The notes under the pieces were generated by a model. It was not told where the DNA came from and made no database searches. It was given only the letters and a program-made list of their open reading frames with translations. A stretch of 64,000 nt of DNA. It comes from Candidatus Micrarchaeia archaeon (GTDB lineage: Archaea > Micrarchaeota > Micrarchaeia > CABMEP01). A program made the position numbers and the translations under genes. The stretch is from the NCBI GenBank assembly GCA_038886535.1, contig JAVZXS010000001.1, positions 100,954-164,953 of the forward strand. The letters run 5' to 3'. Shown here in pieces: positions 5,859 to 46,846 of this stretch (positions are counted from its first letter, which is position 1; the number at the start of each line of letters is the position of its first letter).

Positions 5859-7331
5859 TTAATATTGTCTAGCAATATAAACTACATGTTTTGCAGGTTT
5901 TCCGCAAACCACACATTTCTTATTTCCAAAAGGCTCTTCAACTTTGCCTATAAGAGTTCCTCTTACCTTTCCACCTTTTGTTTCATATTGTATCATGTCT
6001 CCGCATTCTTTTCCATCAGAATCAATAGAACAGATATTGACTCTTGCATATCCCTTATCTTTGTCAAGAATATTCTTAATTTCTTGGATATTTTCTGCAT
6101 TTTTTATTTTCCCCTCTAATTTAGATATTGATTTCTGCTTTAATCTGTTTATCATCTGCTCCTTTTCTTCCTCTATAACTTTGATCAGATCTTTATCCTC
6201 TATTCTTTTTCTTGTTCTTTCATCTCTTGGAACAAGAGTGACAAATTTTTCATTAACTTCTTTTTCTCCGATCTCTATTCTGAAAGGCACTCCTCTAAGC
6301 TCCCAGTCGGCATATTTGTAACCTGGCGTTTTATCTCTTTCATCTAATATTACTTTATATCCTTTCTTTTCTAGTTTCTTTTTAGTGTCTTTACATTTAT
6401 TAATTATTAATTTATTGTCAATCCCGCTCTTTACTATAGGAACTATCACTACATCTACTGGCGCTACAGAAGGAGGAATAACTAATCCTCTATTATCACC
6501 ATGAATAGATATAATCGCAGCCATTATTCTCCATATTCCAGGCCCATAACATGTTTGATAGGCATGGAGTTCGTTGTTATCCTTGTCTTTGAATTTGATA
6601 TTGAATCCTTTTGCAAAATTCTGTCCAAGATAATGTGTGCTTGCAATCTGAAGAGTCTTTCCATCTGGCAGCAGTACATCAGTTGCATAAGTGTGCTCTG
6701 CACCAGGGAAAGTATCCCATTTAGGTCTTTGGAAGAACATGCATTCTATTCCCAGCTGTTCTTTAATAACCTTTGTTGATATCATCATATCTTTTATTAT
6801 CTGTTCTCTTGCTTCTTTTTCTGTTGCAAATGCATCATGTGCCTCTATCCAAAGAAATTCTCTTCCTCTAAAGAAAGGACTGGTTTCTGCCTCATTTCTA
6901 AAGACAGTGCAGCTCTGATACAATTTTATAGGAAGATCGGTATAATCTCTTATCCATAAAGAGTACATTTGATACATTGCAGTTTCACTTGTTGGTCTAA
7001 GCGCAAGCTTTCTGTTTAATTTTTCAGTACCTTTTTCAGTTATCCAAAATACATTAGGAACAAATCCTTCTGCATGCTCTTTTTCGATTTCAAAGTTCTC
7101 TTCAGGAATTACTGTAGGAAAGAGTGTTGGCTCATGACCATCTTTCTCAAGTTCTGCTTCAAATAAAGCATATAATTTTTTGAATATCCTCATTGCCCAT
7201 GGCTTATGTACGATGAATCCCTGCACATTGTATCTATTGTCAACCAAATCTGCTGCATAAATAACTGTATTATACCATTCACTGAAGTTCCTGTCCTTGT
7301 CTTTGTCAAATTCTCTTCCAGCCATTGCCAT
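5859..7331 (-). CDS. proS: Proline--tRNA ligase (archaeal/eukaryotic type)
   Basis: FSEWYNTVI, LALRPTSET, FFRGREFLW, CVVCGKPAKHVVYIARQY C-terminus; start trimmed to MAMAG. Confidence 0.97.
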   Translation of the reverse strand: MAMAGREFDKDKDRNFSEWYNTVIYAADLVDNRYNVQGFIVHKPWAMRIFKKLYALFEAELEKDGHEPTLFPTVIPEENFEIEKEHAEGFVPNVFWITEKGTEKLNRKLALRPTSETAMYQMYSLWIRDYTDLPIKLYQSCTVFRNEAETSPFFRGREFLWIEAHDAFATEKEAREQIIKDMMISTKVIKEQLGIECMFFQRPKWDTFPGAEHTYATDVLLPDGKTLQIASTHYLGQNFAKGFNIKFKDKDNNELHAYQTCYGPGIWRIMAAIISIHGDNRGLVIPPSVAPVDVVIVPIVKSGIDNKLIINKCKDTKKKLEKKGYKVILDERDKTPGYKYADWELRGVPFRIEIGEKEVNEKFVTLVPRDERTRKRIEDKDLIKVIEEEKEQMINRLKQKSISKLEGKIKNAENIQEIKNILDKDKGYARVNICSIDSDGKECGDMIQYETKGGKVRGTLIGKVEEPFGNKKCVVCGKPAKHVVYIARQY

Positions 7332-7430
7332 GATAACACCTTTAAAAACATAAGCATTAATATAATTAGTCAGAGAATATTTAAAAACAGTAATATAATA
7401 ACCAATTATTTCGAGCAATGCGGTGGTCTT

Positions 7431-8714
7431 ATGGCGTATGAAGGATATGTAGATTTGAAATATTCCCCATCCAAAGACGATTTAATATGCAGGTTTTATG
7501 TAGAGCCAAGATACGGAGTTTCGTTTGAGAGAGCAGCTAGTACAGTTGCGGCAGAATCAAGTATAGGAACATGGACAGATGTTCAGACTTCAAAGCCATA
7601 CGTTAAAAAATTAGCAGCTTATGTTTTTCATTTAGATCCAAATTCAGGATATATTGATATAGCATATCCATTAGATGCATTTGAACCAAATAACATTCCT
7701 CAGATGCTTAGTAGCATTGCAGGAAACATATTTGGAATGAAGGAAGCAAACAATCTAAGACTTTATGATATAAAAATTCCAAAGAAAATGATGCAATGGT
7801 ATGATGGACCAATGTTTGGTATACCTGGTGTTAGAAAATTACTCAAGGTTAAAACAAGACCTCTTCTTGGAACAATAATCAAGCCGAAAATGGGTTTAAA
7901 TGTCAGGGATCATGCAAAGGTTGCTTATGAGGCATGGGTAGGCGGATGTGATATAGTCAAGGATGACGAAAATTTAGCAAGTCAGAAATTCAATAATTTT
8001 GAAAAAAGGGTGAAAGAAACATTAAAGTTAAGAGACAAAGCAGAGAAAGAAACAGGCGAAAAGAAGATATATATGCCAAACATAACTGCTTCTGGAAAAG
8101 AAATGGAAAGAAGAGCAAAATTTGTAAAGGATCATGGTGGAGAATATGCGATGGTTGATATAATTACTGTTGGGTGGAGCGCTTTGCAAGATTTGAGGGA
8201 TTCAAATAACAAACTTAATTTAGTAATTCATGAACATAGAGCGGGCCATGCTGCAATCACAAGAAATCCAAAGCACGGAATATCTATGCTTACAATAGCG
8301 AAACTTACAAGGATGCTTGGGTTTGATCAATTGCATGCAGGGACAATAGTTGGAAAGATGGAAGGGGGATTGGAAGAGGTTCAAGATGTTGTAAGTGCGT
8401 TAAAAGAAAAGGTAACTCCTCCAAGGGAAAAAACATTCACATTAGGGCAGGATTGGTATGGTGTTAAACCTTGCTTCCCAGTTGCATCTGGAGGTCTTCA
8501 TCCATTAATGTTTCCTGTAATTACAAAGTACTTAGGAAAAGACTTAATCCTACAAGCTGGAGGAGGAATACATGGACACCCTCAAGGAACAAGAAGAGGA
8601 GCAACTGTTGCGAGAGCTGTATTAGAGGCAGTGGATCAAGGAATAGCGCTTGAGGATTCAAAGGATCCATTAATAAAGGAAGCAATCGAGATCTGGGGCA
8701 AACATAAGTTCTAA
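7431..8714 (+). CDS. rbcL: Ribulose-1,5-bisphosphate carboxylase, form III
   Basis: AAESSIGTWT, AGNIFG, GTIIKPKMG, DIVKDDE, HEHRAGH, LHAGT..GKM, ASGGLHP, QAGGGIHGHP; ATG at 7431 after GGTGG. Confidence 0.95.
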   Translation: MAYEGYVDLKYSPSKDDLICRFYVEPRYGVSFERAASTVAAESSIGTWTDVQTSKPYVKKLAAYVFHLDPNSGYIDIAYPLDAFEPNNIPQMLSSIAGNIFGMKEANNLRLYDIKIPKKMMQWYDGPMFGIPGVRKLLKVKTRPLLGTIIKPKMGLNVRDHAKVAYEAWVGGCDIVKDDENLASQKFNNFEKRVKETLKLRDKAEKETGEKKIYMPNITASGKEMERRAKFVKDHGGEYAMVDIITVGWSALQDLRDSNNKLNLVIHEHRAGHAAITRNPKHGISMLTIAKLTRMLGFDQLHAGTIVGKMEGGLEEVQDVVSALKEKVTPPREKTFTLGQDWYGVKPCFPVASGGLHPLMFPVITKYLGKDLILQAGGGIHGHPQGTRRGATVARAVLEAVDQGIALEDSKDPLIKEAIEIWGKHKF

Positions 8715-10458: not shown

Positions 10459-11856
10459 TTGGATTATCCTGAAACAAGTAGAGAGATAAAGGTACCTACG
10501 AATCCAATAGATAAAGTTATAGGTCAAGATGAAGCAATAAAATATGTAAAGATCGCAGCATCTCAAAAAAGACATATTCTTTTAGTGGGAGCTCCAGGTA
10601 CTGGAAAAAGCATGATTGCACAGGCAATGGCATCCCTTCTTCCAAAGCCTAATTATGAAATCTCTGTACTTGATAATCCAGAACATCCAGAAAGACCTAT
10701 TCTAGAAGTTCGCTCAAGATTTGATATAGAACATGAAAAGAAAATTCCAAAACCGAAAATAGTAAAACCGGTGGACGTTCCAATTGTAGTAGCTGAAAGA
10801 TTGGGTCTTAGATGCAAAAGATGTGGTTTTTTAAGCAAACCTGAGATATCCTCATGTCCAAACTGTGGTGCAGACAAATATAAAACTCATACTTCTCCAT
10901 TTGATGATATTGTTTTCGGTGGTTCAGCTAGAGAAGATAAGGTTTTTTCTTCAGAATATATAAATGGTGTAGAACAAAAAGTAATGTACGAGTATAAAAA
11001 AGGAAACATCTACCTTTATGATGAAGAGGCGTTGGCAGCAAGAGAACATGCTACTGTTCAGAGGAATGTGATAGTTCCTTTAGAGAGATCTCTTTTTGTT
11101 CAGGCAACTGGAGCTTCTGAAACAGAGCTTCTCGGTGATGTTAGACATGATCCCTATGGAGGGCATAGTGAGATAGGTACAAAGCCATTCAAAAGGGTGG
11201 TTCCAGGAGCAGTGCACGAGGCTCATGAAGGAGTTCTTTTTATAGACGAACTTTCAAATTTAGGACATCTTCAGAGGTATCTTCTTACCGCAATGCAGGA
11301 AAAGAAGTTTCCAATAACAGGTAGGAATCCAACAAGTTCTGGAGCATCTGTCAGAGTCGATAATGTTCCATGTGATTTTATTCTTGTCGGTGCGCTTAAT
11401 TTTGCTGATGTAGGTACATTGCTTCCACCATTGCGTTCAAGGATTCTTGGAAACGGGTTTGAGGTTTTAATGAACACTGTAATGGAAGATAATGAGAAAA
11501 ATGTAAAAAAACTCATGCAGTTCATAGCTCAAGAAATAATCGCAGATGGAAGGATTCCTCATGCAAGTGCAAAAGCGATCGAAGCAATAATTAATGAAGC
11601 AAGAAGAAAAGCAAAGCTTTATGACAACAAGGAAGGATTGACATTAAGATTAAGAGACCTCTCTGGAATAATCAAGCTTGCAGGTGATTTTGCAGTAATT
11701 GACGGAGCTGAATTAATAGAAGAAAAACATGTTGCATTAGCAATAGAGAAAGCAAAACCAATTGAGCAGCAGATGCAAAAGAAGTATGGTTCAGTATGGA
11801 GAAGCAGTGCATCAGATTATGGCATCTCTAAGGCGCCAGATGAACATATATTCTAA
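10459..11856 (+). CDS. Lon-type (LonB-related) AAA+ ATPase lacking the protease domain, with Zn-ribbon insertion
   Basis: DKVIGQDEA, Walker A GAPGTGKS, DVRHDPYGG, AHEGVLFIDE, LRSRI, LRLRDL; CKRC-x10-CPNC; ends about 45 aa after the AAA lid. Confidence 0.85.
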   Translation: MDYPETSREIKVPTNPIDKVIGQDEAIKYVKIAASQKRHILLVGAPGTGKSMIAQAMASLLPKPNYEISVLDNPEHPERPILEVRSRFDIEHEKKIPKPKIVKPVDVPIVVAERLGLRCKRCGFLSKPEISSCPNCGADKYKTHTSPFDDIVFGGSAREDKVFSSEYINGVEQKVMYEYKKGNIYLYDEEALAAREHATVQRNVIVPLERSLFVQATGASETELLGDVRHDPYGGHSEIGTKPFKRVVPGAVHEAHEGVLFIDELSNLGHLQRYLLTAMQEKKFPITGRNPTSSGASVRVDNVPCDFILVGALNFADVGTLLPPLRSRILGNGFEVLMNTVMEDNEKNVKKLMQFIAQEIIADGRIPHASAKAIEAIINEARRKAKLYDNKEGLTLRLRDLSGIIKLAGDFAVIDGAELIEEKHVALAIEKAKPIEQQMQKKYGSVWRSSASDYGISKAPDEHIF

Positions 11857-12092: not shown

Positions 12093-13475
12093 TCAGATTT
12101 CACATTTTAGATTTTCTCTTCTAATTATTTCTCTCGCTGCAATCAATCCCGTAACAGCAGCTGTAACTATTCCTCCACTTACCCCAGCTCCATCTCCTAC
12201 AGTAAAGAGATTTTTGATCTGTTTACATTCCATATTTTTACTTATATCTAATCTTACAGATTTGAACTTGATCTCAGGAGCATACAATAAGGTATGCTCT
12301 TGATTCACTCCAGGTATAACCCCAGAAAGCATGTCTAATCCCTCAACTATGTCATTTACAATTCTTTCAGGCATTGCCATGCTTATATCTCCAGGAGTTA
12401 CCTCTTTGTTTGTTGGTTCAACATAGCTCTTTTCAATTCTATCCCAAGTACTCCTTCTTCCTTTCTTGAGGTCGCCAAGTCTTTGAAGTATGGGTTTTCC
12501 ACCACCGATTGTAGTTGCAAGCCTTGCAATGCTTTCTCCGTAGAGTGTTGTATTTTCAACCGGTTCTGTTAATTTCACTCTGACTAGAAATGCAAAATTA
12601 GTATTGTTTGATTTTTTATCCTTCATGCTATGGCCATTAACAGAGACGAAGTCGCCATAGTTTTCAGTTATAACGAAGCCTTTAGGGTTGGTGCAAAAAG
12701 TTCTTACAAAATCATCATATTTTTTAGTAGTTATATGAAACTTAGGATCCCAGTTTATTGAAGTAACCTCTTCCATAACTTCATTATTTACCTCAACCCT
12801 TACCCCAATATCCAAAGGACCATATTCATAATTTATTCTATATTTATTTGCTAAATCAAGAAGCCATCTTGATCCAGCTCTTCCAGGCGCAAGTATTACG
12901 TAATCAGAATTAATCTCATATTCTTTATTGTTTTCAACTATCAATCCTTTTATTTTATTATCTTCTATTATCAAGTCTTTTGCCTTTGTTTTTATCTTTA
13001 TTTCCACTCCATTATTTTCCATTTCTCTCTTTATATTTTGGACAACAGATGGAAGATGATCTGAGCCAACATGCTTTTGTTTTATAGGAATATACTTTAT
13101 GCCTGCCTGCATAGCCTTTATCCTTAATTCCTCTGCCTTATGGTTTACTTCTGCCTTAGTTTCCACTCCATTCTTAACCAAAACATTGTCTACATAAGCA
13201 ATCAACTTTTCAGCATCGCTTCTGCTTGTGAATTCAAGCATGTTTCCTCCTATCTCTGGATCAAGGTTTATCTTTCCGTCAGAAAAAGTTCCGCTTCCAC
13301 CCATTCCTTGAATATAATGTGGCGCTGCAGTAGATCCTCCATCTTTGATCTTTTCAGATCTCTCTTTTATATCCTCTCCCATTTCAACCAAAACTACATT
13401 CATACCTGCTTTTCCTAAAAGATAGGATGCGAAAATTCCTGCTGGACCAGCACCGACAACTATTACTTTCTTCAT
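12093..13475 (-). CDS. FAD-dependent oxidoreductase (COG2509-like)
   Basis: VIVVGAGPAG Rossmann motif, GMGGSGTFSDGK, RTFCTNPKG, GDGAGVSGGI; start trimmed to MKKVIVV. Confidence 0.85.
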   Translation of the reverse strand: MKKVIVVGAGPAGIFASYLLGKAGMNVVLVEMGEDIKERSEKIKDGGSTAAPHYIQGMGGSGTFSDGKINLDPEIGGNMLEFTSRSDAEKLIAYVDNVLVKNGVETKAEVNHKAEELRIKAMQAGIKYIPIKQKHVGSDHLPSVVQNIKREMENNGVEIKIKTKAKDLIIEDNKIKGLIVENNKEYEINSDYVILAPGRAGSRWLLDLANKYRINYEYGPLDIGVRVEVNNEVMEEVTSINWDPKFHITTKKYDDFVRTFCTNPKGFVITENYGDFVSVNGHSMKDKKSNNTNFAFLVRVKLTEPVENTTLYGESIARLATTIGGGKPILQRLGDLKKGRRSTWDRIEKSYVEPTNKEVTPGDISMAMPERIVNDIVEGLDMLSGVIPGVNQEHTLLYAPEIKFKSVRLDISKNMECKQIKNLFTVGDGAGVSGGIVTAAVTGLIAAREIIRRENLKCEI

Positions 13476-13634
13476 AACTATCCAGTCATCATTTTTTACA
13501 AACATATTTTAATCTATCTAATCTTCACTGCGAATTTTTTCTCATTTTAATTTTAAATTGAGAAATAGTGATTCATTAGGTTCTAATATGATAATACTTT
13601 AAAATTTTATGTTCAATTTGTTTTTATTAAATTT

Positions 13635-14288
13635 TTGGTGATAAATTTGGAATCAATTTTCAATGATATAAAGAGAGGTAGACCTGTTCTTGTATATGAA
13701 CCTGAAGAAGATGAATTTTCTATGATGATTTTGGCAAATAAAATGAATATAAGTAAGATGCGTCTTATGAAGAAATACGCTTCTGGAGATATCGGAGTAG
13801 CTATATCTTATGAACTTGCCTCAAAAATAAAAATCCCATTTCTTCATGAGTTAATTATTTCTCATAAAAAGAAAATTCCAAACATAAAAAAAAGCAGTTT
13901 ATCTTTACTTATTGACCATGTTAAGGCGAAAACAGGATCATCAGATAAAGATAAATTATTATTAATTAAAGAAATAGCATCTGCTGCTAAGAGTAAAAAT
14001 TATGAAAAATTTGTCAAAAATATTTACATTCCAGGTCATCTTAAATTTTTTATTGCAGCAAAAGGTCTTTTAGATTCAAGACAAGGTCATACAGAATTAA
14101 ATGTAGCACTTGCTAGATTAAGTGGCCTTAAACCTCACGAAGTAGCAATAGTAATGTGTTCTCTTCGAAATCCAAAAAATGGAAAAATGATTACTAAGAA
14201 AGACTTAAATAAATTTTCTGACTTAAAAAAATTGCCAATAATTGATAGAGATGTAATCTTAAGATATTGGAGAGAAGAGTATGGATAA
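13635..14288 (+). CDS. Archaeal-type RibB (DHBP synthase) homolog with degenerate active site
   Basis: KRGRPVLVY, IPF, KTG..D.D, PGH, AAKGLLDSRQGHTEL.VALA resemble archaeal RibB; true start may be GTG 13638 or TTG 13647. Confidence 0.8.
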   Translation: MVINLESIFNDIKRGRPVLVYEPEEDEFSMMILANKMNISKMRLMKKYASGDIGVAISYELASKIKIPFLHELIISHKKKIPNIKKSSLSLLIDHVKAKTGSSDKDKLLLIKEIASAAKSKNYEKFVKNIYIPGHLKFFIAAKGLLDSRQGHTELNVALARLSGLKPHEVAIVMCSLRNPKNGKMITKKDLNKFSDLKKLPIIDRDVILRYWREEYG

Positions 14289-15216
14289 TATTCTTAAAAA
14301 GCTGTATATGATTAGATACTTTGAAGAAAAAGTTGCTGAATTGCATAAAGAAGGAATTGTTAACGGAACAGATCATTTCAGTACAGGTCAAGAAGCTATT
14401 CCAATAGGAGTTTGTTCACACTTAAGGAAAAGTGATATAGTTACATGCGGACACAGAGTATATCACATCGCACTGAGTTGTGGGTTGAAACCAGAAAAAA
14501 TTTTTGCAGAACTACTTGGAAAAACAACAGGATATAATAAAGGATATGCGGGAGCGATGCATTTTTCATCAAAAAGTGAAGGCTTTTGGGGAGCTAACGG
14601 AATAGTAAGTGCTAATGTAGCTATTTCTAGTGGTATAGCATTAAGTTTAAAGGTACAAAAAAGTAATTCTATTGTTGTAACATTTCTTGGAGATGGTGCT
14701 ACAACACAAGGTATATTTCATGAAACTCTTAATATGGCCTCTCTTTGGAATTTACCAATACTTTTTGTTTGTGAAAACAACTATTGGGCTCAATCAACAT
14801 CTATAAAAGAACATTCTGCCGTAATAGATCTTGCAAAGAAGGTAAAAGGAGCATATAATATAGAATCTTTAAGAGTAGATGGAACAGATATAAATAAAGT
14901 GATGAAGAGTAGCAAGATAGCAATAGATAAAGTTAGAAAAGGAAAACCTGTGTTTATAGAATTTTTGACATACAGACAATGCGGACATTCAATAAATGAT
15001 GTTGATAAATCATATTTCACAAAAGAATATATAAGAAAAGCAAAACTAAATGATCCAATAATAAAATATGAGAGATATCTTATTAAGAAGAAATTAATAA
15101 CGAGAGAAAAAATTGAAGAGTTAAAGAAGGAAATAAAGGAGCAGCTTGAAAAAGATCTAATTGCAGCTAAAAATGCTAGATTGACCGAATTAAATGAAAT
15201 AGAGGTTTTTAAATGA
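14281..15216 (+). CDS. TPP-dependent dehydrogenase E1 alpha subunit (PDH/acetoin dehydrogenase-like)
   Basis: STGQEA, GAMH, GANGIV, GDGATTQG..CENN TPP motif, YRQCGHS. Confidence 0.9.
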   Translation: MDNILKKLYMIRYFEEKVAELHKEGIVNGTDHFSTGQEAIPIGVCSHLRKSDIVTCGHRVYHIALSCGLKPEKIFAELLGKTTGYNKGYAGAMHFSSKSEGFWGANGIVSANVAISSGIALSLKVQKSNSIVVTFLGDGATTQGIFHETLNMASLWNLPILFVCENNYWAQSTSIKEHSAVIDLAKKVKGAYNIESLRVDGTDINKVMKSSKIAIDKVRKGKPVFIEFLTYRQCGHSINDVDKSYFTKEYIRKAKLNDPIIKYERYLIKKKLITREKIEELKKEIKEQLEKDLIAAKNARLTELNEIEVFK

Positions 15217-16133
15217 AATATATCGATGCGATTAGAAATGTAATAATAAATGAAATGGAAAATAATGAAAAGATAATTGTCATGGGACAAGATATTAGAG
15301 AGTGGGGAGGTTCCTCTGGGCTATTTAAAGGCCTAGATAAAAGGTTTAAAGGTAGAATAATAAACACACCTATTTCAGAAGCAGCAACCGTAGGTATAGG
15401 AATCGGGGCAGCAATGAACGGAATGAGACCAATAATAGAATTTACTTTCTTTGATTTTCTACTTTGTGCAGCCGATCCTATAATCAACCATGCTGCAAAA
15501 ATAAAAGCTCTTTCTAATGGAGATTTTAATGTTCCTTTAATTATAAGAGGAGTTCTATCATCTCATAGAGGTTATGGTGCAACTCATTCGCAAAATTTAG
15601 AATATATCTTCATGTGTCCAGGACTTAATGTTGTATATCCTTCAAATCCAGATGATGCAGCAGGGCTTATGAGATATGCACTAAATCAGAGTGATCCTGT
15701 TTTATTCATCGAGCATAAACTTTTGCACAACATGGAAGGAGGGGTTACATCAGAATCAGTACCATTTGGAAAGGCTAAGATAAGGCAGAAAGGTAAGAAT
15801 CTGGGGATTATTACATATGGAAGATTAGTTCCAATTGTAGAAAGAATAATTAAAGATATGGATGTTGAATTGCTTGACTTAAGGTCATTAAATCCTTTAG
15901 ATAAAGAATCGATAATTGCAATTAGTAGAAAAACAGAAAAAATTCTTATAATAGAAGATGGTATCGGATTTGTTGCATCTAAAGTTGCAGCTATAGTGCA
16001 TGAAAACTCAAACGCAAAGGTAAAAATAATGCATGCAAAAGAGTTTCCAATTCCTGCTGCCAAAAATTTGGAAAATTATGTTTTACTTACAGATGACAAA
16101 ATTACAGAAGTAATAACCTCTTTTATTAAATGA
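15213..16133 (+). CDS. TPP-dependent dehydrogenase E1 beta subunit
   Basis: MGQDI, NTPISEA, GMRPIIE, GATHSQ, PVLFIEHKLL, DLRSLNPLD; ATGA overlap with alpha subunit. Confidence 0.9.
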   Translation: MKYIDAIRNVIINEMENNEKIIVMGQDIREWGGSSGLFKGLDKRFKGRIINTPISEAATVGIGIGAAMNGMRPIIEFTFFDFLLCAADPIINHAAKIKALSNGDFNVPLIIRGVLSSHRGYGATHSQNLEYIFMCPGLNVVYPSNPDDAAGLMRYALNQSDPVLFIEHKLLHNMEGGVTSESVPFGKAKIRQKGKNLGIITYGRLVPIVERIIKDMDVELLDLRSLNPLDKESIIAISRKTEKILIIEDGIGFVASKVAAIVHENSNAKVKIMHAKEFPIPAAKNLENYVLLTDDKITEVITSFIK

Positions 16134-16218
16134 GATATTGAATCATAAAATATAAATACTATTTTTACTTAATTTTATATTATTATCTGCTATTTGATAG
16201 TAGTTTATTAGTGATATT

Positions 16219-36202: not shown

Positions 36203-36940
36203 TTGAACATGATTTATTCAAGATTAAAGATATATTTGAGAAAAGAGAATCCAATTTCAAATTCAATCATCTTTAATGATAGATACTTAATTTATTCTTT
36301 CATTCTTAATGCTATAAGAATGAAAAATCCTGATCTTAGTGATAAAATACATTCAAATAAATTACCTCGGGCATTTGTTTTTTCTAATATAATTCCCTAT
36401 AAATCATATCATATTTTGTATTTTACAACTCCTTATAAAGAAGTTTTTAATGCATTCTATTCTGGTTTAAACAGAAGTTCAAGATTAAATGATAGAAATA
36501 AGATGTTTAATTTTAATATAGTAAATACTATTTTAGAAAATTTTGATATAAGTTCATATAAACATTTTAACTTTTTATCTCCTTTTCTAATTCGAACAAA
36601 AGAGAAAGTTTTAGATGAGATTGATCTAAATTTTTTTGAAAAAAGTATCTCTGAAGGAATAAAAAGAGTTAGTACTAAATTAAATATTGATGTAGAAGAT
36701 ACAAATGTAAAAATAAATGGTACTAAAGATGACTTTAGGAAGAAGCTGTATGTTTTTAAGAACTCAAAAAATGAAGATGTATATATAAGAGCATTTTCAG
36801 CAAAATCTCCTTCTGTTTCGATTTCATTTAATGACGATAAGGCTAAAGCAATCGCGCTATTTTATGGAATTGGAGATAGAACTAAACTTGGATTTGGTAT
36901 GTTAGGGTTTAAAGGTGGATTAGGTGAAGGGTTACAGTAA
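36203..36940 (+). CDS. cas6: CRISPR-associated endoribonuclease Cas6
   Basis: FVFSN, FLSP, C-terminal G-loop YGIGDRTKLGFGM; first gene of cas operon. Confidence 0.88.
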   Translation: MNMIYSRLKIYLRKENPISNSIIFNDRYLIYSFILNAIRMKNPDLSDKIHSNKLPRAFVFSNIIPYKSYHILYFTTPYKEVFNAFYSGLNRSSRLNDRNKMFNFNIVNTILENFDISSYKHFNFLSPFLIRTKEKVLDEIDLNFFEKSISEGIKRVSTKLNIDVEDTNVKINGTKDDFRKKLYVFKNSKNEDVYIRAFSAKSPSVSISFNDDKAKAIALFYGIGDRTKLGFGMLGFKGGLGEGLQ

Positions 36941-38477
36941 CTTTCAAATTGCAATGGGTAGGGCTGTTGCAAAAATTATAATTCAAAGTTCAGATTTGAG
37001 TGAGCTAGATAATGAATTATATCGTTTTTCCGACGCAATAATTAAATCAAATGACGACATTCCAACAATCGCAAATCAATTATGGGATAAATTATTTAAG
37101 GATCCAAGTGAATTTCCACTAATGAAAAAGTTATTTCATATTATTTTAAGGACAAATGCAGCTATAGAGAACATTCCATCTAACCAAAATGTGAGAGACT
37201 ATATTTCTAAAATTTTAGCCATTTCTGATGAAGAAATGAGAAAAATAGAGAAGCAATTAAAAGAAGCTAAGAATAAAAAGAAACCCTCATTAAAATCGCT
37301 GATTGATTTTCTTCATGGTGAAAGAAAAGCAAAGATTTTATTCTCTTATTTTGTTTGTTTATTAAAAGGGAATCAAAATGGTAAAAAAAAGAATCAAAAT
37401 GGTGATACAAAATGCTACAATTGTGGAATGCAAGGAAGAAACTATTCTTTATCAAATCTAACTCTTTCTAATAAAAGCGATTACATTTTTGAATTTCAAA
37501 GATATACCATATGTTTTAGATGTTTAATATATACAATTCTATCAAATCTTTATCCAGTTCCAAATAAAAATATTCATCCATTTACAAATAAAAATTCTAC
37601 CAAAAAATCTAAAAAAATTTATTATAGTTTAATATCGGATGAAGAAGACATAACTCCATCTTTCATATTTTATGAAAATCAATTTGATAGATTTTTAAAA
37701 TATGTTTATCTTAATGATAACTTTTCTAGAATTTATATTATGTTTTTCCAAGAAGGTTCTCGATCTGGGAATAATATACCTATTTCTATTTCTCAGTTTA
37801 ATATAGTTCCAAAATTAATTAAGATGCTGGAAGAAAAAGAAAAAGGAAAAAAAGAAGAAAGAAGTTCGGTTCTAGATTTCAAAAAAATATTTTTCAACGA
37901 ATTAATGGATTTACCAATTTATTTCGTTTCATTTGGTGACTTCATTCAAACTTCATATCTGAATAAAGGATTAATAATATCTTTTATCAATATGTATAGA
38001 ACTAATTTTTCTAAAAAACATAAAGAATCCTTTTCTTCTCTTTATAAATTTACAAAATTTGTAAAAGAATACTTAGAGGTGAATGAAATGGAAAATAATT
38101 TTATGGTAGAAAAAAAATCTTCAAGTGAAAACGATAGAAACTCAAAATTAGAAGCATTGAAAAAGGGAATGTCTTTTGGTTATAGAATAAAAGAATCTGA
38201 TATTTATAAAGAAGATGAGGAGCGTTCAGAAAAGTATATCGTTTCTTCTAGTGCAGTTATGGAGCTTAGTGGAAAAGAATTTATAAGAACAATTATAGAG
38301 ATAACTAGGAATTATGGATTAGAGATTGTACAAAATATGAATGAATATATTGAAAAAATAGCAGATGATGAAGAACTAAGACTTTATTTTATTTTAGGGA
38401 TGCTAAGTCGCATAGGTAGAAATAAAAAGGAGTCTGTTCAAAGTGAAGGTGAAAAAGTAGAAGGTAATATTAATTGA
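36924..38477 (+). CDS. cas8: Type I-B large subunit Cas8 (Zn-binding CxxC..CxxC)
   Basis: Position between cas6 and cas7; CYNC and CFRC pairs; helical C-terminal domain. Confidence 0.75.
   Translation: MKGYSNFQIAMGRAVAKIIIQSSDLSELDNELYRFSDAIIKSNDDIPTIANQLWDKLFKDPSEFPLMKKLFHIILRTNAAIENIPSNQNVRDYISKILAISDEEMRKIEKQLKEAKNKKKPSLKSLIDFLHGERKAKILFSYFVCLLKGNQNGKKKNQNGDTKCYNCGMQGRNYSLSNLTLSNKSDYIFEFQRYTICFRCLIYTILSNLYPVPNKNIHPFTNKNSTKKSKKIYYSLISDEEDITPSFIFYENQFDRFLKYVYLNDNFSRIYIMFFQEGSRSGNNIPISISQFNIVPKLIKMLEEKEKGKKEERSSVLDFKKIFFNELMDLPIYFVSFGDFIQTSYLNKGLIISFINMYRTNFSKKHKESFSSLYKFTKFVKEYLEVNEMENNFMVEKKSSSENDRNSKLEALKKGMSFGYRIKESDIYKEDEERSEKYIVSSSAVMELSGKEFIRTIIEITRNYGLEIVQNMNEYIEKIADDEELRLYFILGMLSRIGRNKKESVQSEGEKVEGNIN
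38088..38477 (+). CDS. cas11: Putative Cas11 small subunit from an internal in-frame start within cas8 (129 aa)
   Basis: GAGGTGA SD at 38076-38082, 5 nt before in-frame ATG (Met389 of Cas8). Confidence 0.65.
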   Translation: MENNFMVEKKSSSENDRNSKLEALKKGMSFGYRIKESDIYKEDEERSEKYIVSSSAVMELSGKEFIRTIIEITRNYGLEIVQNMNEYIEKIADDEELRLYFILGMLSRIGRNKKESVQSEGEKVEGNIN

Positions 38478-38486
38478 GGTGGTATT

Positions 38487-39467
38487 ATGGATATAAATAA
38501 TAAAGATAAAAATGAAGAAGCTAAGAAATTAAAAGAGTTTGTTTTGTTTAGCGAAGAAATGAAGAAAATAAGTGAGAAATATGGTTTTAGTCATGGAAAA
38601 AGAGTAACTTTAACAGCTATTTATTACTCTTTCCCATCAAATCAAAATGCAAGTGGTTCAACAGGAACTAATGTAATCTCTCAAAAGATTATACCTTGGG
38701 GAGAAGAAGCCGAACCTCGTATTTATATAAGTCCTTACGCTATTAAAAGAAGGATAAGAGATTATTGGATTAAAAAGAAACTGCCTTGCGTAATGGCAGA
38801 GAATACGGTATACGCAAAATCAAATTCAGATGATGCTAAAAAAGATATCAAAAAAGCTATTAAAAAATATATAGATGTTGACTTATTCGGTTTCATGTAT
38901 GAGGAAAAGATAAATAGACCTGGTCCCATAACGACGTGGGGAGCAGTATCATTAGAACCGGTTCATCAGTTTATAGACTTTAATAGTTGTATTTTGAATG
39001 TTAAGGATGAAAGTAGCGGAGGAGGCTCTTTAATAAACAGATCGATTTCAAAAGAATTCTATTTTACATCATTTTATATAAACCCTGATCTTATATTATA
39101 TTCAAACGATGAATATGTGGGAGATAACAAGGAAGAAAGATTAAATCGTTTAGAAAACTTCCTTGAAGCAGTTGACTATGCCCTTCAAAAAGATTCAGGT
39201 GGTGCAAGAGATAGACCTACATGCATATTTAAATTATTAGAAATAAATGATTTTGGATACGGCGATTCAGATAAGAAGATTTTCAAGTGTATCAGTGTAG
39301 CGAATGATAAATTAAAGTTTGCAGAAATCCCAACATTCAAATCAAATAAAACTTATTACTATGCAGATAAACTATTCTTTGATGAAACTGAAGAGAAATT
39401 AAGTAAATTAGGACAAAAATGGAAAATAAAAGAGATAGCAGAGGAAATAGTTTACAGCAAAAATTAA
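38487..39467 (+). CDS. cas7: Cas7 backbone subunit (DevR/Cas7i-like)
   Basis: PSNQNASG, YISPYAIKRRIRD, IDVDLFGFM, RPGP, AVSLEP, SGGARDRP. Confidence 0.88.
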   Translation: MDINNKDKNEEAKKLKEFVLFSEEMKKISEKYGFSHGKRVTLTAIYYSFPSNQNASGSTGTNVISQKIIPWGEEAEPRIYISPYAIKRRIRDYWIKKKLPCVMAENTVYAKSNSDDAKKDIKKAIKKYIDVDLFGFMYEEKINRPGPITTWGAVSLEPVHQFIDFNSCILNVKDESSGGGSLINRSISKEFYFTSFYINPDLILYSNDEYVGDNKEERLNRLENFLEAVDYALQKDSGGARDRPTCIFKLLEINDFGYGDSDKKIFKCISVANDKLKFAEIPTFKSNKTYYYADKLFFDETEEKLSKLGQKWKIKEIAEEIVYSKN

Positions 39468-39478
39468 AAGGTGTTATA

Positions 39479-40246
39479 ATGCAAAATTTAGATCTTTCTA
39501 AATTTTGGTTTTATAGATTAAGTGTTGAAGGTTGGCTCGCCCATTTTAGGCAGCCAACTACAGTTTCAAGTAGATTAACTTTTATTTTACCTCCAAAATC
39601 AACTGCCATCGGTATGTTACTTGCTAAAGTTGGTTTATACAAAAGAATTGATAAAAATATATTACTATTCAAAAATAAAAAATTAAGAGAATTATTTGAC
39701 AATACATTCATAGCAATTTCACTAAAAAGAGGAATTGTAAAATATATGGATTATTTAAATTATATATCAAAAAAAGATAAACGTAAACCAACTAATATAG
39801 AGTATATTGTAAATCCATCCTATGAGATTATATATTTTCTACCTAAAGATGATCTGATATTAGGAGAAAAAAATAAAGAAATAATCATAAATAAAGAAAT
39901 TTTTAAAGTTTATTTAGGCTACAATGAATGTCCAGCTACTATTAATTTATCTGAAGAAATAAATAGCAATCAAATTAATTTTAGTAATAGGCAGGATATT
40001 ACTACTGACTTCATTTTACCTCTTGATGTTGTTGATTCATCAAGTATCGATAGAAGTAAACTTAGCGAATTGTTAAGATCATCTATACTTATTAGTACCC
40101 CTCAAAATGTGAAAGAAGTTGAGGATACAATGAAAGAAAAAGAAGTTTTGGTTCCATTAAGAAAAATGGAATTTAGATTAAATAATAATATTCCTGTTTT
40201 CGAAATGAAGTTGAATGGAAATATTAATCAATTCTTGGTGATTTGA
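39479..40246 (+). CDS. cas5: Cas5
   Basis: GWLAHFRQP, LTFILPPKSTAIGML, YLGYNE. Confidence 0.88.
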   Translation: MQNLDLSKFWFYRLSVEGWLAHFRQPTTVSSRLTFILPPKSTAIGMLLAKVGLYKRIDKNILLFKNKKLRELFDNTFIAISLKRGIVKYMDYLNYISKKDKRKPTNIEYIVNPSYEIIYFLPKDDLILGEKNKEIIINKEIFKVYLGYNECPATINLSEEINSNQINFSNRQDITTDFILPLDVVDSSSIDRSKLSELLRSSILISTPQNVKEVEDTMKEKEVLVPLRKMEFRLNNNIPVFEMKLNGNINQFLVI

Positions 40247-42633
40247 TGCAGCATGATAAGTTATTAGCTAGACCTAATCAAGAGCTTATAAATCATTTGA
40301 TGGAAATAAAGAATAAAATTCCAAAAAATGTTTCAGAATTAGAAAAGATGGTTTTTATATTGCATGATATTGGCAAGGTTTCAGATAAATTTCAGAAGAA
40401 ATTAGAAAAGAATGAGAATGTTAGATTCAGACATACTTTAGCTTCTTTACCAATTATTGAGTATATTATAAATGAATATAAAACAGTAAATCCAGAATCA
40501 AATTACCAAGATACCGATATTTATCTGATTTTAGTTTATTACCATCATGGACAAATATCTTTTGATATGTTACAAAATGATTTGGTTCATTTTTCCATTC
40601 AAAAAAATGATGAAAATAACATCAATATAATAGAAAAGGATGAGCTAATGAGAGTTAAGCAAATACTTAAAGATCTTAATTATGGAGAATATTTCGATGA
40701 AGAAAAATTTATACATTACTATTTAAATTCAAATGGTTCAGATTATAATCGCCTTTATAATGAAAAATTAAAAGAGATTTTAAAACGAATATATAATAAA
40801 TTTAAAATAGTTTCACCTGAGGTCAAAAAGAAATTTGCTTTGCTTTATTCTATTTTCGTAGAATTAGATTGGTATTCTACTTCCGATAGCAATAATGAAA
40901 TTTTACCAGATTGGAATGGGATTGAATTTTCTTTCAAAAAGAAATTTAAAGAAAGAAAGGAAGGAAGAGTAGATAGGGATTTGGAAGTTGAAAATATTAG
41001 AAATAAAATTAAAGATCTATTAATTAAAAATATAGATGAAGGTAGAATTTTTATATGTGCACCGACCGGAATAGGTAAGACCGAATTGTCTTTAGAATGG
41101 GCATTGAATAATGCCAAAAAACTGAATGCAAGAAAAATAATATATGTATTACCTTACCGAAATTTAATAAACGACTTGTATAAACGTTTTACTTTTTATT
41201 TCGGAGACGAAAACGTTGATAAATGGGATTCAAATTGGATAACTGATAAAACAATTGATTATGCAAGTGAACTAAGTGATATTGAAAAATTTAATTTCTA
41301 TCTAAATGCGAGAAAGTATTTTATGGAGAAACCAATAATAATAACTACAGCAGATCAAATACTGATGTCGTTCTTAAATTTAGAGAGATATCCTATAAGA
41401 TATGGTATGTTAATGAATTCAGTAATCGTTTTTGATGAAATACAGGCTTATGGAGTGGACATGAGGAATTTAATGTATAAATTAATAAGTGAAATAGCAA
41501 ATATCAAAGATATAAATGGTGAATATACTTGTAAATTGGCAATAACTACTGCTACACCTCCTTTTGAAATTTCAATTTCTGAATTTAAAGATTATATAGA
41601 TATTGATGGTATTTCATTTAAACTTTTGTACGATAAATATTGGTGGTCTTTTCATAAAAAACGCGATGCAAATGTTTTAATAATTGAGATTGATAAAAAT
41701 TCTCAAATTGTAGATATAATAAAACAGAAAGTAAATGAATCAAAAAATGAGGAAAATTATAGAATTTGTATAATTGTCAATACAATAGCAGATGCTGTTG
41801 GTTTATATAGACTACTAGAAAAAAATAATGTTAAAGATGTTATTAAAGAAAATTATGAAATAGCATTAATACATAGTTCATTAATTAATGAGCATAAACA
41901 AAAGGAATTAGATAAAATAAATAAGAGTAAGAAGTTAATAGCCATTTCAACGCAAGTATTAGAAGCAGGCATTGATATTTCTTTTGACTGTATAATAAGA
42001 TTGATTTCACCAATTCCTTCTTTAGTTCAATCGGCAGGGAGAGTTAATAGAGATGGAAAAAGCCGTAATGCAGAATTTATAATATTGATACCAACTGAAG
42101 AAATTTTAAATAATGAAAAACGTAAAAAAAGCAATATAAATTTTTATGGTCCGTATGATATAGAAGAAATTAAAAAAGTAATCGAATTATTAAAAGAAAA
42201 TAAAGGAAATTTGATTAAAAAGAGTAAATTCAGTGAAGAATTTATAAAAAAAGAAATCGATACATTAAAATTTGAATATTCTGAAAGTAAAGAATATATA
42301 GATTTTCTTAATAATCTTGTTGCTTATAACATTTGGTCTGTATCATCGTTAAGTTCAATCTTGCCTCAAGGCTTTAGAGACTCTTTAGGTAAAGTAGAAG
42401 TTTTTGTAGAAGATGAATCAAATAAAAAGAAAGACATGGAGGATAAGCTTAAAAATTATATAAAATTATCAAAAGAGAATGATTATTCAGAATATATAAG
42501 GAAGTATCTTCAATTATTAAGAGAATATCAAAGTAGATTTATTCTAACTTATTTAGATTCTAAGATAGATACTATCTCTATAAAGAAATATAAAGAGAAT
42601 TTTTATCCTCAACATGAAAATTCTGATAAATGA
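40246..42633 (+). CDS. cas3: Cas3 HD nuclease-helicase
   Basis: LHDIGK, RHTLAS, HHG, APTGIGKT, FDEIQ, TAT, QVLEAGIDIS, QSAGRVNR; TGATG coupling to cas5. Confidence 0.95.
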   Translation: MQHDKLLARPNQELINHLMEIKNKIPKNVSELEKMVFILHDIGKVSDKFQKKLEKNENVRFRHTLASLPIIEYIINEYKTVNPESNYQDTDIYLILVYYHHGQISFDMLQNDLVHFSIQKNDENNINIIEKDELMRVKQILKDLNYGEYFDEEKFIHYYLNSNGSDYNRLYNEKLKEILKRIYNKFKIVSPEVKKKFALLYSIFVELDWYSTSDSNNEILPDWNGIEFSFKKKFKERKEGRVDRDLEVENIRNKIKDLLIKNIDEGRIFICAPTGIGKTELSLEWALNNAKKLNARKIIYVLPYRNLINDLYKRFTFYFGDENVDKWDSNWITDKTIDYASELSDIEKFNFYLNARKYFMEKPIIITTADQILMSFLNLERYPIRYGMLMNSVIVFDEIQAYGVDMRNLMYKLISEIANIKDINGEYTCKLAITTATPPFEISISEFKDYIDIDGISFKLLYDKYWWSFHKKRDANVLIIEIDKNSQIVDIIKQKVNESKNEENYRICIIVNTIADAVGLYRLLEKNNVKDVIKENYEIALIHSSLINEHKQKELDKINKSKKLIAISTQVLEAGIDISFDCIIRLISPIPSLVQSAGRVNRDGKSRNAEFIILIPTEEILNNEKRKKSNINFYGPYDIEEIKKVIELLKENKGNLIKKSKFSEEFIKKEIDTLKFEYSESKEYIDFLNNLVAYNIWSVSSLSSILPQGFRDSLGKVEVFVEDESNKKKDMEDKLKNYIKLSKENDYSEYIRKYLQLLREYQSRFILTYLDSKIDTISIKKYKENFYPQHENSDK

Positions 42634-43162
42634 TAGTATGATGAAACATGAAATTAAATACGATGATGTAAGTGGAACTGAATTTAATTATTTTTTCGTT
42701 TGTAAAACACAACTATGGTATCTTTCTCACTCATTAATAAAGTCAGATGAAGATGAAAATGTAAAGATTGGGAGATTAGTTCATGAAATCAAGTATAAAT
42801 CAGAGAGGAAAGAAAGGCCTCTATTTAGGTCTAAATTTGATGTAGTCAAGTTAAATAACAGATATGTAATATACGAATATAAAAAAAGCGCTATTAAAGA
42901 TTCACACATAAAGCAATTAAAATTTTATCTCTATTCCTTAAAGAAGCAAACAGATGCAGAAGTTCAAGGTATCTTGATCTCACCAGGAAAACGTATTTTT
43001 GTTTCTCTTTCAAGTGAAGACTTTAATGAGATAGATTCTACTATAAATGAAATCCACCAAATTAAAAAGTCTAAGTTTCCACCAAAACCAGTCAAAATAC
43101 CTACTTGCAAAAAGTGCGGTTATAGATCATTCTGTTGGGGTGACACTTATGAGTTTGGATAA
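42614..43162 (+). CDS. cas4: Cas4
   Basis: CKTQLWY, D..EYKKS, QLKFY, CKKCGYRSFC. Confidence 0.95.
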   Translation: MKILINDSMMKHEIKYDDVSGTEFNYFFVCKTQLWYLSHSLIKSDEDENVKIGRLVHEIKYKSERKERPLFRSKFDVVKLNNRYVIYEYKKSAIKDSHIKQLKFYLYSLKKQTDAEVQGILISPGKRIFVSLSSEDFNEIDSTINEIHQIKKSKFPPKPVKIPTCKKCGYRSFCWGDTYEFG

Positions 43163-44105
43163 TTATTACATTGTTGATGATGGGAAAATTTTGATGAAAA
43201 ATACAACTGTTTATTTCATTAATAAAGAAAGAAAAGTTGATATACCAATTGAAAATATATACTCTCTTTATTTTATTGGTTCTGGTTCTATTTCTACAAA
43301 AGTTCTAAAAGAATTTCAAAAAAGGAAAATAATAGTTAATTTCTTTGGAAAAAGAGGAGATTATATCGGTTCTTTCTACCCCAAAGAACATTATATCTCT
43401 GGTGATCTAGTAGTAAGACAGGTTAAAAGATATCTTGATGACAAAAGTAGATTAAAGTTTGCTTCTAAATTTGTGGAAGGCGCTATTAATAATATTGATT
43501 GGATTTGTAGGAGATTTAATTTAGGTGAAATAAATAAACCAGATATATCGTCTTCAGATACTATAGAATCATTAATGCAAAAAGAAGGATTAGTAAGAAA
43601 GAAGTTTTACTCATTAATTGATGAAAGACTAGATGATTCATTTAAAATAACCAGAAGAGAAATAAACCCACCTTCAAATAGAGGAAATGCAATCATAAGT
43701 TTTCTTAATTCTATGGTCTATTCAACAGTTTTATCTGAACTATATCATACACATCTAAATCCAGCTATATCTTTTTTACATGAACCTTTTGAAAGGCGTT
43801 TTTCACTATCGTTAGATGTGAGTGAAATATTCAAACCTTTACTCTCAGAAAGACTTCTAATAAAGATGGTTAACTTGAAAATGTTAGATCCTATTTTAGA
43901 TTTCGAGTCGAATGATGGTGTATTTTTAAGTAAAATCGGTATTAAAAAAATAATTAAGGAATTCGATGATGAAATTAAGAAATCGGTTAAAGGTAAAAGT
44001 AATAGATTATTTTCAATACGTGAATTAATTAGACTAGAGCTATATAAGATAGAGAAAGATCTTTTAGACATTTCTGAATATAAACCTTTGAAGGCCTGGT
44101 GGTAA
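43149..44105 (+). CDS. cas1: Cas1 (I-B type)
   Basis: NTTVYF, DIPIENI, GSFYP, EG..RKKFY, NAIISFLN, FLHEP, LSLDVSEIFKP. Confidence 0.96.
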   Translation: MSLDNYYIVDDGKILMKNTTVYFINKERKVDIPIENIYSLYFIGSGSISTKVLKEFQKRKIIVNFFGKRGDYIGSFYPKEHYISGDLVVRQVKRYLDDKSRLKFASKFVEGAINNIDWICRRFNLGEINKPDISSSDTIESLMQKEGLVRKKFYSLIDERLDDSFKITRREINPPSNRGNAIISFLNSMVYSTVLSELYHTHLNPAISFLHEPFERRFSLSLDVSEIFKPLLSERLLIKMVNLKMLDPILDFESNDGVFLSKIGIKKIIKEFDDEIKKSVKGKSNRLFSIRELIRLELYKIEKDLLDISEYKPLKAWW

Positions 44106-44106
44106 A

Positions 44107-44370
44107 ATGTATGTAATTGTTGTTTATGATATAACAGAAGTAAAAAAGCAACTTAAAATAAGAAATTTTTTGAGGAGATTTCTAAATCACATTCAATTTT
44201 CAGTTTTTCATGGAAATTTAAATCCTTCACAATTGAAAGAAATTGAATTATTTCTAAAGGATTTCGATTATGAGGGAAATGATTCAGTAGTGGTTTTCAT
44301 TGTTCCAATATACTCAAATATTAGAAATTTAGTTTTTGGCAGAAATATAGAAAAATCTAATATTATCTAA
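44107..44370 (+). CDS. cas2: Cas2
   Basis: MYVIVVYDI, LNHIQFSVFHG, DSVVVF. Confidence 0.96.
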   Translation: MYVIVVYDITEVKKQLKIRNFLRRFLNHIQFSVFHGNLNPSQLKEIELFLKDFDYEGNDSVVVFIVPIYSNIRNLVFGRNIEKSNII

Positions 44371-44476
44371 ATCTAGTATAGAAGGTGGTTTCAAAGCTTT
44401 TTAAATACTTTAAAAAAAGTTAATTTGTATTAAAATTATAATAATTAATTAAAATTCTTATTCGATGTAGTTTAAG
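44371..44476 (+). promoter_or_regulatory. CRISPR leader
   Basis: AT-rich non-coding 106 bp between cas2 and the first repeat; degenerate repeat is at the opposite end. Confidence 0.75.
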
Positions 44477-46529: not shown

Positions 46530-46846
46530 ACTAAGAATAAAAATAGGAGACTAAATTAATAGATAAAATTATACAATATTCGTTTTAATTTTTTAATTAA
46601 ATGATTAATCAATCTAATGATTTAAATCAGTAAAAATTAGAGATTCTAAAATACGAAAGTTTACATCAGATGAACGATACACAGCTATAATGGTAAACAA
46701 GAACTTAGTAAAAAAATAAGAAGCCAGAAGATATGAATCTCTCTTGTATATTAGAGAGAATTACAGATTCATTCATATCAATATTCAGTAAGGTTTAAAA
46801 TTAGAAAAAATATAGAAAAGAATGGTTATTTAATTTTAAAGATCTA

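Follow-up and report, generated by a model that had tools for sequence, protein, structure and literature searches.

Among the described systems closest to the locus reported here are RibB, the DHBP synthase of riboflavin synthesis (DHBP stands for 3,4-dihydroxy-2-butanone 4-phosphate), and the E1 alpha2beta2 core of pyruvate dehydrogenase (PDH) and acetoin complexes, which uses thiamine diphosphate (ThDP). The RibB fold can serve as a fusion module, both in RibBA, where it is joined to GTP cyclohydrolase II, and in RibBX of Acinetobacter (6mnz). Stand-alone E1-like pairs exist as well: those of branched deoxysugar synthesis, for instance AviB1/AviB2 of avilamycin, take a C2 unit from pyruvate and pass it on to keto-sugars. 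In a 64,000-nt stretch of the genome of a Candidatus Micrarchaeia archaeon (contig JAVZXS010000001.1, positions 100,954 to 164,953; the whole stretch is called the window), the RibB and E1 folds are found side by side: at positions 13635-16133, three open reading frames on the same strand encode a RibB-like protein, an E1 alpha and an E1 beta. Judged from sequence and gene context, this trio appears to be a genuine, rare and undescribed module that belongs neither to riboflavin synthesis nor to a PDH complex.

How does the locus compare with these precedents? With M. jannaschii RibB (MJ0055, 1pvw/1pvy) the window protein shares the fold, the Glu and His metal ligands, the R-x-GHTE phosphate site and the His of the PGH motif, but it lacks Asp30, Cys55 and Glu185, has a shorter acidic loop and carries Asp52, Ser102, Lys/Arg137 and Arg178 of its own; its type lives in genomes without lumazine synthase and, apart from one protein (P0004), is coupled or fused to an E1. 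The E1 pair keeps the ThDP-Mg motif, the alpha-chain His and the beta-chain Glu and His of the PDH/acetoin enzymes (TIGR03182; AcoA/AcoB), yet it belongs to a distinct clade, has a RibB-fold partner instead of E2, and occurs in hosts without a lipoyl domain in which no E2 was found where it was searched for. Pairs of the AviB1/AviB2 type are the nearest lipoyl-independent precedent: they too consist of E1 alpha and beta without E2 or E3 and, possibly like the trio, act on a sugar-type acceptor, but their substrates are nucleoside diphosphate sugars, they belong to actinomycete antibiotic clusters and they have no RibB-fold partner. RibBA and RibBX, finally, have canonical catalytic residues and a riboflavin role, whereas the trio joins the fold to a ThDP enzyme and has an altered catalytic set.

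The host of the window is a tiny symbiotic archaeon of the DPANN group, represented by a metagenome-assembled genome (MAG) of 1.14 Mb with a completeness of 88%. The gene for the remodelled RibB-fold protein (13635..14288, plus strand; PF00926) encodes 217 aa if read from the TTG at 13635, but the start is probably the TTG at 13647, giving 213 aa, because a GGTGA motif precedes this codon by 5 nt and the annotated orthologues begin with MES/MEL. Its stop codon overlaps the start of the E1 alpha gene by 8 nt (ATGGATAA); the latter (14281..15216, plus strand; 311 aa; PF00676) encodes a ThDP-binding chain of the short PDH 'y'/acetoin type and overlaps the E1 beta gene (15213..16133, plus strand; 306 aa; PF02779 and PF02780) by ATGA. 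Shine-Dalgarno-like GGAG/GAGG motifs stand just 5' of both E1 starts. An earlier sequence-only reading of this DNA, made without database searches, had pointed out both overlaps, which are present as it described them, and had also called the operon AT-rich, which does not hold: its GC content of 31.1% is within one standard deviation of the window mean (32.6%, standard deviation 2.8% in 2.5-kb windows), and 24% of such windows are lower. A foreign AT-rich island is rejected on the same grounds.

Evidence for a functional unit comes from the recurrence of the trio. A RibB-like gene followed by E1 alpha and E1 beta is found in 11 distinct lineages, with stop/start overlaps at most junctions, and outside the close relatives of the window, which are 87% identical, the RibB-like proteins of these loci share 30-47% identity with that of the window. 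Besides the window and its close relatives (L007, L008 and L011), the trio loci are L013 and L022, L021, L004, L012, L002 (where the contig ends inside E1 alpha), L023 and L044, L016-L018, L019 and L020, and L014. The last of these is a fusion: P0018, a protein of 528 aa, carries the RibB-like domain at the N terminus of E1 alpha and is followed by E1 beta. A second RibB-like/E1 alpha fusion, P0015, is truncated. In two related MAGs (87-90%), a frameshift in a stretch of poly-A (KKTKK; L007:11567-12488 and L008:11567-12595) breaks E1 beta in two; the split falls at different points in the two and reflects either sequencing error or incipient decay.

A search that began with E1 alpha led to the same result. 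Its nearest relatives, at 46-98% identity, stand apart from a plateau of generic PDH/acetoin E1 alphas at about 40-43%, and a RibB-like gene lies directly upstream in all three clade E1 alphas whose context was fetched. In a maximum-likelihood tree, 15 RibB-linked or closely related E1 alphas, the fusion included, form a single clade with an SH-aLRT support of 100. Pairwise identities of the three proteins correlate with one another across nine loci (r = 0.92-0.94). All in all, the trio is established as a self-contained, vertically co-inherited unit. Its genes are under purifying selection: the ratio of nonsynonymous to synonymous substitution rates (dN/dS) is 0.145 for the RibB-like gene, measured against an orthologue of 88% identity, and the values of E1 alpha and E1 beta are 0.168 and 0.089. 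The co-occurrence of a degenerate RibB with E1 alpha and beta across genomes, which the sequence-only reading had proposed to look for, is seen in 11 lineages and as a fusion in two sequences; the outcomes it had named as speaking against its proposal, a one-off pseudogene or an unconserved pairing, are at odds with a recurrent trio and dN/dS values of 0.09-0.17.

For all its recurrence, the module is rare. When 1.84 billion representative proteins are grouped at 50% identity, the remodelled RibB-like type accounts for about eight clusters; a scan of 185,579 species genomes returned three loci, and JGI metagenomes returned two, of which one belongs to a canonical RibBA from a bacterium. Within a comparison sample of 401 Micrarchaeia genomes it is confined to the genus of the window, where two of five genomes are without the trio. 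The canonical counterparts are far from rare in this sample: 122 genomes have a RibB match and 236 a longer, canonical E1 alpha. After three genomes of the same genus, the best 20 RibB matches are all canonical in their GGLIC and CEML motifs; not one of them adjoins the RibB-linked type of E1. In the one case examined of a canonical E1 alpha/beta pair (G339/L026), the gene immediately downstream encodes an E2 that is complete, with a lipoyl, an E3-binding and a catalytic domain. This genome also has a canonical RibB near the E1, which we considered as a parallel pairing and rejected as coincidental: the RibB has a canonical active site, a Mut7-C gene on the opposite strand lies between the two, and the E1 is part of a full E1-E2 operon.

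What kind of protein is the RibB-like partner? It matches Pfam DHBP_synthase (PF00926) with 117 bits, above the Pfam cut-off, and is publicly annotated as DHBP synthase. Under the NCBIfam equivalog models it falls below the cut-offs, with 130.6 against 177 bits for TIGR00506 and 97.6 against 262 bits for the archaeal NF004437. Its AlphaFold2 model has a pLDDT of 94.5, and the top Foldseek matches are all RibB, the best being M. jannaschii 1pvw with a TM score of 0.86 at 30% identity. To compare active sites, 17 subfamily members were aligned with 116-136 canonical RibB sequences from the profile search; residue numbers are those of the window protein unless marked as M. jannaschii (Mj). The metal and phosphate set that is conserved in canonical RibB (Glu25, Glu27, His135, Arg149, Gly151, His152, Thr153 and Glu154) is kept in essentially every subfamily sequence, and the metal-binding Glu25 and His152 (Mj Glu26 and His164) and the phosphate-binding Arg149 and Thr153 (Mj Arg161 and Thr165) are present in all 17 and in nearly all canonical proteins. 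Three other positions have changed. At position 29 (Mj Asp30), Asp in 116 of 116 canonical sequences, the subfamily has Ser, Ala or Cys; at position 54 (Mj Cys55 of GGLIC; Cys in 99/119), it has Ser, Gly, Ala or Leu and never Cys, with Gly in the window protein; and at position 176 (Mj Glu185 of CEM; Glu in 130/131), it has Ser or Thr, with Ser in the window protein. The acidic loop has been cut by two residues and has lost its Arg and final Asp.

These losses are accompanied by gains that are equally characteristic of the subfamily. Position 52 (Mj Leu53; Leu, Ile, Pro or Met in canonical RibB) is Asp in 16/17, position 102 (canonical Ile or Val) is Ser in 17/17, position 137 (Pro, Phe, His or Ala) is Lys or Arg in 17/17, and position 178 (Leu, Met or Ile) is Arg in 14/17. 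Because residues 135 and 137 share one beta-strand of the AlphaFold2 model and residues 176 and 178 another, we infer a common orientation for the new cationic side chains and the former catalytic positions. The window protein shows the full signature of the subfamily: a short acidic loop E-E-x-E-x-[SA], then [ST][GS]D[IV], TGS, PGH-x-[KR], R-x-GHTE and [ST]-x-R. The alignment bears out the residue claims of the sequence-only reading, namely that PGH and R-x-GHTE are retained and that the loop Arg and Asp, the Cys of GGLIC and the Glu of CEM are lost; on this pattern the active site reads as remodelled, not decayed. A second group of degenerate RibB proteins (P0051, P0082, P0097, P0100, P0107 and P0151) was also seen, in which the His and Gly of GHTE are replaced (x-I-T-E-L-S-L-A) and the Glu of CEM is often lost.

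In the two E1 chains the catalytic residues are intact. E1 alpha matches E1_dh (PF00676) with 235 bits and E1 beta contains Transket_pyr (PF02779) and Transketolase_C (PF02780), while both remain under the NCBIfam equivalog cut-offs (TIGR03182, 294.6 against 394 bits; NF006667, 236.7 against 321 bits). E1 alpha is about 40-45% identical to human/mitochondrial and bacterial E1 alphas; E1 beta resembles those of Pyrobaculum, human and Thermus, and its best match among solved structures is the group of 1ik6 and human E1 beta. The ThDP-Mg motif G[DE]G...ENN, His236, His32 and Arg59 of E1 alpha are conserved across the clade, the ThDP-Mg motif and the catalytic His in 15/15 alpha chains, and the catalytic Glu56 and His125 of E1 beta are invariant in 11/11. 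Clade-specific changes in E1 alpha are Tyr to Ser at 34, Asn to Thr at 142 and the relaxation of an otherwise invariant His at 61.

Neither protein has its customary company. No E2, E3 or rib gene lies near the trio, as the sequence-only reading had remarked for the locus, and the search of the genome at large that it had suggested, for E2 and a canonical ribB, found neither: in the 1.14-Mb, 88% complete assembly there is no 2-oxoacid_dh domain, lipoyl domain, lumazine synthase, second RibB or second E1. The other trio genomes are MAGs of 0.5-0.8 Mb. Lumazine synthase (PF00885) is absent from 6/6 trio genomes, while 14/14 control genomes have a match; the lipoyl domain (PF00364) has no match above cut-off in 6/6; and the E2 catalytic domain (PF00198) has none in the 4/4 that were searched, the host's own and three others. 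Since neither the remaining riboflavin enzymes nor the usual partners of an E1 are present in the host, the trio probably encodes an undescribed enzyme. No description of a RibB-like/E1 module was found in the literature searched, from which most subscription journals fall outside. The proposal of an undescribed module that couples a repurposed RibB fold to an orphan E1 thus receives strong support from the conserved pairing at 30-47% identity, the fusion and the single E1 clade, and its orphan status from host genomes without a lipoyl domain or riboflavin pathway and, where searched, without E2.

How might such an enzyme work? We lean, with measured confidence, towards one self-contained enzyme in which a lipoyl-independent ThDP core of the PDH/acetoin type, E1 alpha2beta2, would be joined by the RibB-fold protein as a third subunit. 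A physical complex of the two is likely, because the genes are translationally coupled, the proteins occur fused and their symmetries match; RibB dimers and E1 heterotetramers are both two-fold symmetric. Since the metal and phosphate residues are kept, Asp30, Cys55 and Glu185 are replaced and four new residues have been gained, the RibB-like subunit most likely retains a site for a metal and a phosphorylated carbonyl compound and makes no DHBP for riboflavin. A pentulose (bis)phosphate is one candidate ligand, a 1-deoxy-ketose phosphate or a phospho-oxoacid another, and the ligand is probably more anionic; the site may also perform a partial enolisation step. At the E1 site, a ThDP-dependent C-C step would then cleave or transfer a C2 (hydroxyethyl/acetyl) unit on or onto the bound compound, and an intact E1 without a lipoyl acceptor leaves decarboxylation, cleavage or carboligation as outcomes. 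More specifically, the RibB-derived and E1 sites could act in sequence on a phosphorylated pentulose or 1-deoxy-ketose, making a new kind of ThDP enzyme, an idea we regard as speculative and rather unlikely as it stands. Along this route, metal-assisted enolisation/elimination on ribulose 5-phosphate (Ru5P) or ribulose 1,5-bisphosphate (RuBP) would give 1-deoxy-2,3-diketo-pentose 5-phosphate, which ThDP cleavage would split into a C2 unit and a C3 phosphate (3-phosphoglycerate or glyceraldehyde 3-phosphate); run in reverse, it would be a carboligation. The shift of charge in the pocket, with Asp and Glu lost and Lys/Arg and Arg gained, and the coupling of P0004 to triose-phosphate isomerase are compatible with such a sequence of steps without demonstrating it. 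The sequence-only reading had proposed related chemistry, in which a pentulose phosphate might be dehydrated and the ThDP enzyme would then cleave it or transfer an acyl unit.

A single enzyme with a RibB-fold subunit has points against it, which we gather here. In P0004 (L005/L006) the RibB-like gene is followed not by E1 but by an overlapping triose-phosphate isomerase gene. The lineage of L023 and L044 has Asn in place of His135. No further conserved neighbour that would hint at a substrate was found among the trio loci. Asp30, Cys55 and Glu185 are reportedly the acid-base catalysts of RibB, according to the work of Fischer and Steinbacher on the M. jannaschii and E. coli enzymes, and only the two metal ligands have active-site roles backed by literature here. 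The absence of E2 and rib genes, finally, is strong evidence and yet short of proof, because the trio genomes are MAGs. As an observation in its own right, an archaeal phosphoenolpyruvate carboxylase gene adjoins the P0004 RibB-like/triose-phosphate isomerase pair in L005 (4851-6315) and in L006.

Could the RibB-fold protein then be a non-catalytic subunit, which senses a ligand or acts as a scaffold to regulate or stabilise a stand-alone E1, itself a simple 2-oxoacid decarboxylase or carboligase for pyruvate or acetoin-like substrates? The loss of three near-invariant residues thought to be acid-base catalysts would be explained, the retained ligand-binding residues suit a sensor equally well, the fusion and translational coupling show association and not catalysis, and the catalytic set of E1 is complete by itself. 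Against this stand the conserved new polar and charged residues D52, S102, K/R137 and R178 at or beside the old active site, which look more re-tooled than decaying, and the retention of His135 and Glu27, for which a mere phosphate sensor would have no use. We see the sensor or scaffold, whose ligand-sensing form the sequence-only reading had named as its alternative, as the main rival, a possibility to be taken seriously although we do not think it probable. Decaying relics, or pseudogenes in the making in reduced symbiont genomes, would account for the E1 beta frameshifts in L007 and L008 and for the two same-genus genomes without the module; however, selection is purifying throughout the trio, nearly every lineage has unbroken reading frames, even very divergent members share the motifs, and frameshifts that sit in homopolymer runs and differ between assemblies may be sequencing errors. 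Decay is the explanation to which we give the least credence of all.

An ordinary, if divergent, DHBP synthase that happens to lie beside the remnant of a PDH or acetoin dehydrogenase would make the adjacency meaningless. The Pfam match and the public annotation agree with it, and among Micrarchaeota RibB is common, as are PDH complexes (PMC8407392). It does not explain why the pairing is kept down to about 30% identity and fused in two sequences, why lumazine synthase and the lipoyl domain are missing from all six trio genomes and E2 from all four searched, why Asp30 and Glu185 are replaced and the scores fall short of the equivalog cut-offs, or why canonical RibB in this phylum is unlinked to this type of E1. 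We hold this explanation to be very improbable.

The single enzyme of E1 core and RibB-fold subunit that we favour would be encoded by a compact transcription unit. An AT-rich intergenic leader (13506..13646, plus strand) with a probable ribosome-binding site, GGTGA at 13637-13641, probably holds the promoter, as judged from reading the sequence; a promoter scan of this leader used a bacterial model, which is uninformative for an archaeal host. At the other end, an 85-nt AT-rich spacer with T-runs (16134..16218, plus strand) separates the trio from deoxynucleoside-kinase genes. Archaeal transcription terminates at oligo-T, on which basis the spacer is the probable end of the unit, and a search of it for a hairpin terminator found none.

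Several neighbours were considered as further members of the module and set aside. The divergent FAD-dependent protein encoded on the minus strand just upstream (12093-13505), which had been put forward as a redox partner, is conserved beside the trio only in the same-genus loci L007 and L008 and in no other lineage, and is for this reason placed outside the module. Directly downstream, three tandem paralogous deoxynucleoside-kinase genes (PF01712; 16219-18617) are kept in same-genus relatives; as genus-specific neighbours they are likewise not members of the unit. About 5 kb upstream lies the gene for a form III-like RuBisCO large subunit with both domains (7206-8714), probably part of the archaeal AMP/nucleoside salvage route, and a link of the trio to form III RuBisCO and RuBP was rejected, as RuBisCO is present in only three of the six trio genomes. 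A bona fide bacterial-type 1-deoxy-D-xylulose 5-phosphate (DXP) synthase, DXS, is encoded about 104 kb past the window end (C1:268738-270735; TIGR00204, 722 bits against a cut-off of 466), with no genes of the methylerythritol phosphate pathway beside it; every genus or family relative tested has it, and only a few other Micrarchaeia do. With DXS present in four of six trio genomes, absent from two and also found in same-genus genomes without the trio, the association with DXS or DXP tracks phylogeny and is not obligate. A CoA_binding_2 protein (PF13380) of about 130 aa is encoded just 3' of E1 beta at L021:10484-10876 and L022:9929-10318, and was dismissed as a general partner since it follows the trio in these two related loci only.

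Two other features of the window may be mentioned. A type I CRISPR-Cas locus (36203-46530; Cas6, Cas7, Cas5, Cas3, Cas4 and Cas1), with an array after the cas genes (44477-46530) in which the 30-nt repeat GTCTAAAATCATACAATGATGGATGTGAAC occurs about 32 times, is the part of the window that is truly low in GC, at about 27%. A LonB-like AAA+ protein of 465 aa (10459-11856; Mg_chelatase/LonB lid) has a zinc-ribbon inserted, and Pfam detected no protease domain in it.

Finally, we would like to consider what the module could mean for the families and organisms concerned. The RibB-fold subunit would be a third type of partner for the well-studied E1 ThDP enzymes, and its active site would be a clear case of RibB re-tooled outside riboflavin synthesis, in a compact module of two or three genes that even has a natural fusion form, which should make it easier to express. 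At present these genes receive the automatic labels "DHBP synthase" and "pyruvate dehydrogenase E1", which wrongly suggest to metabolic reconstructions of DPANN archaea that riboflavin synthesis and a PDH complex are present. If the sequential route were true, lipoate-free, genome-reduced DPANN archaea would have a shortcut of the phosphoketolase kind that links pentoses derived from nucleosides with central metabolism.

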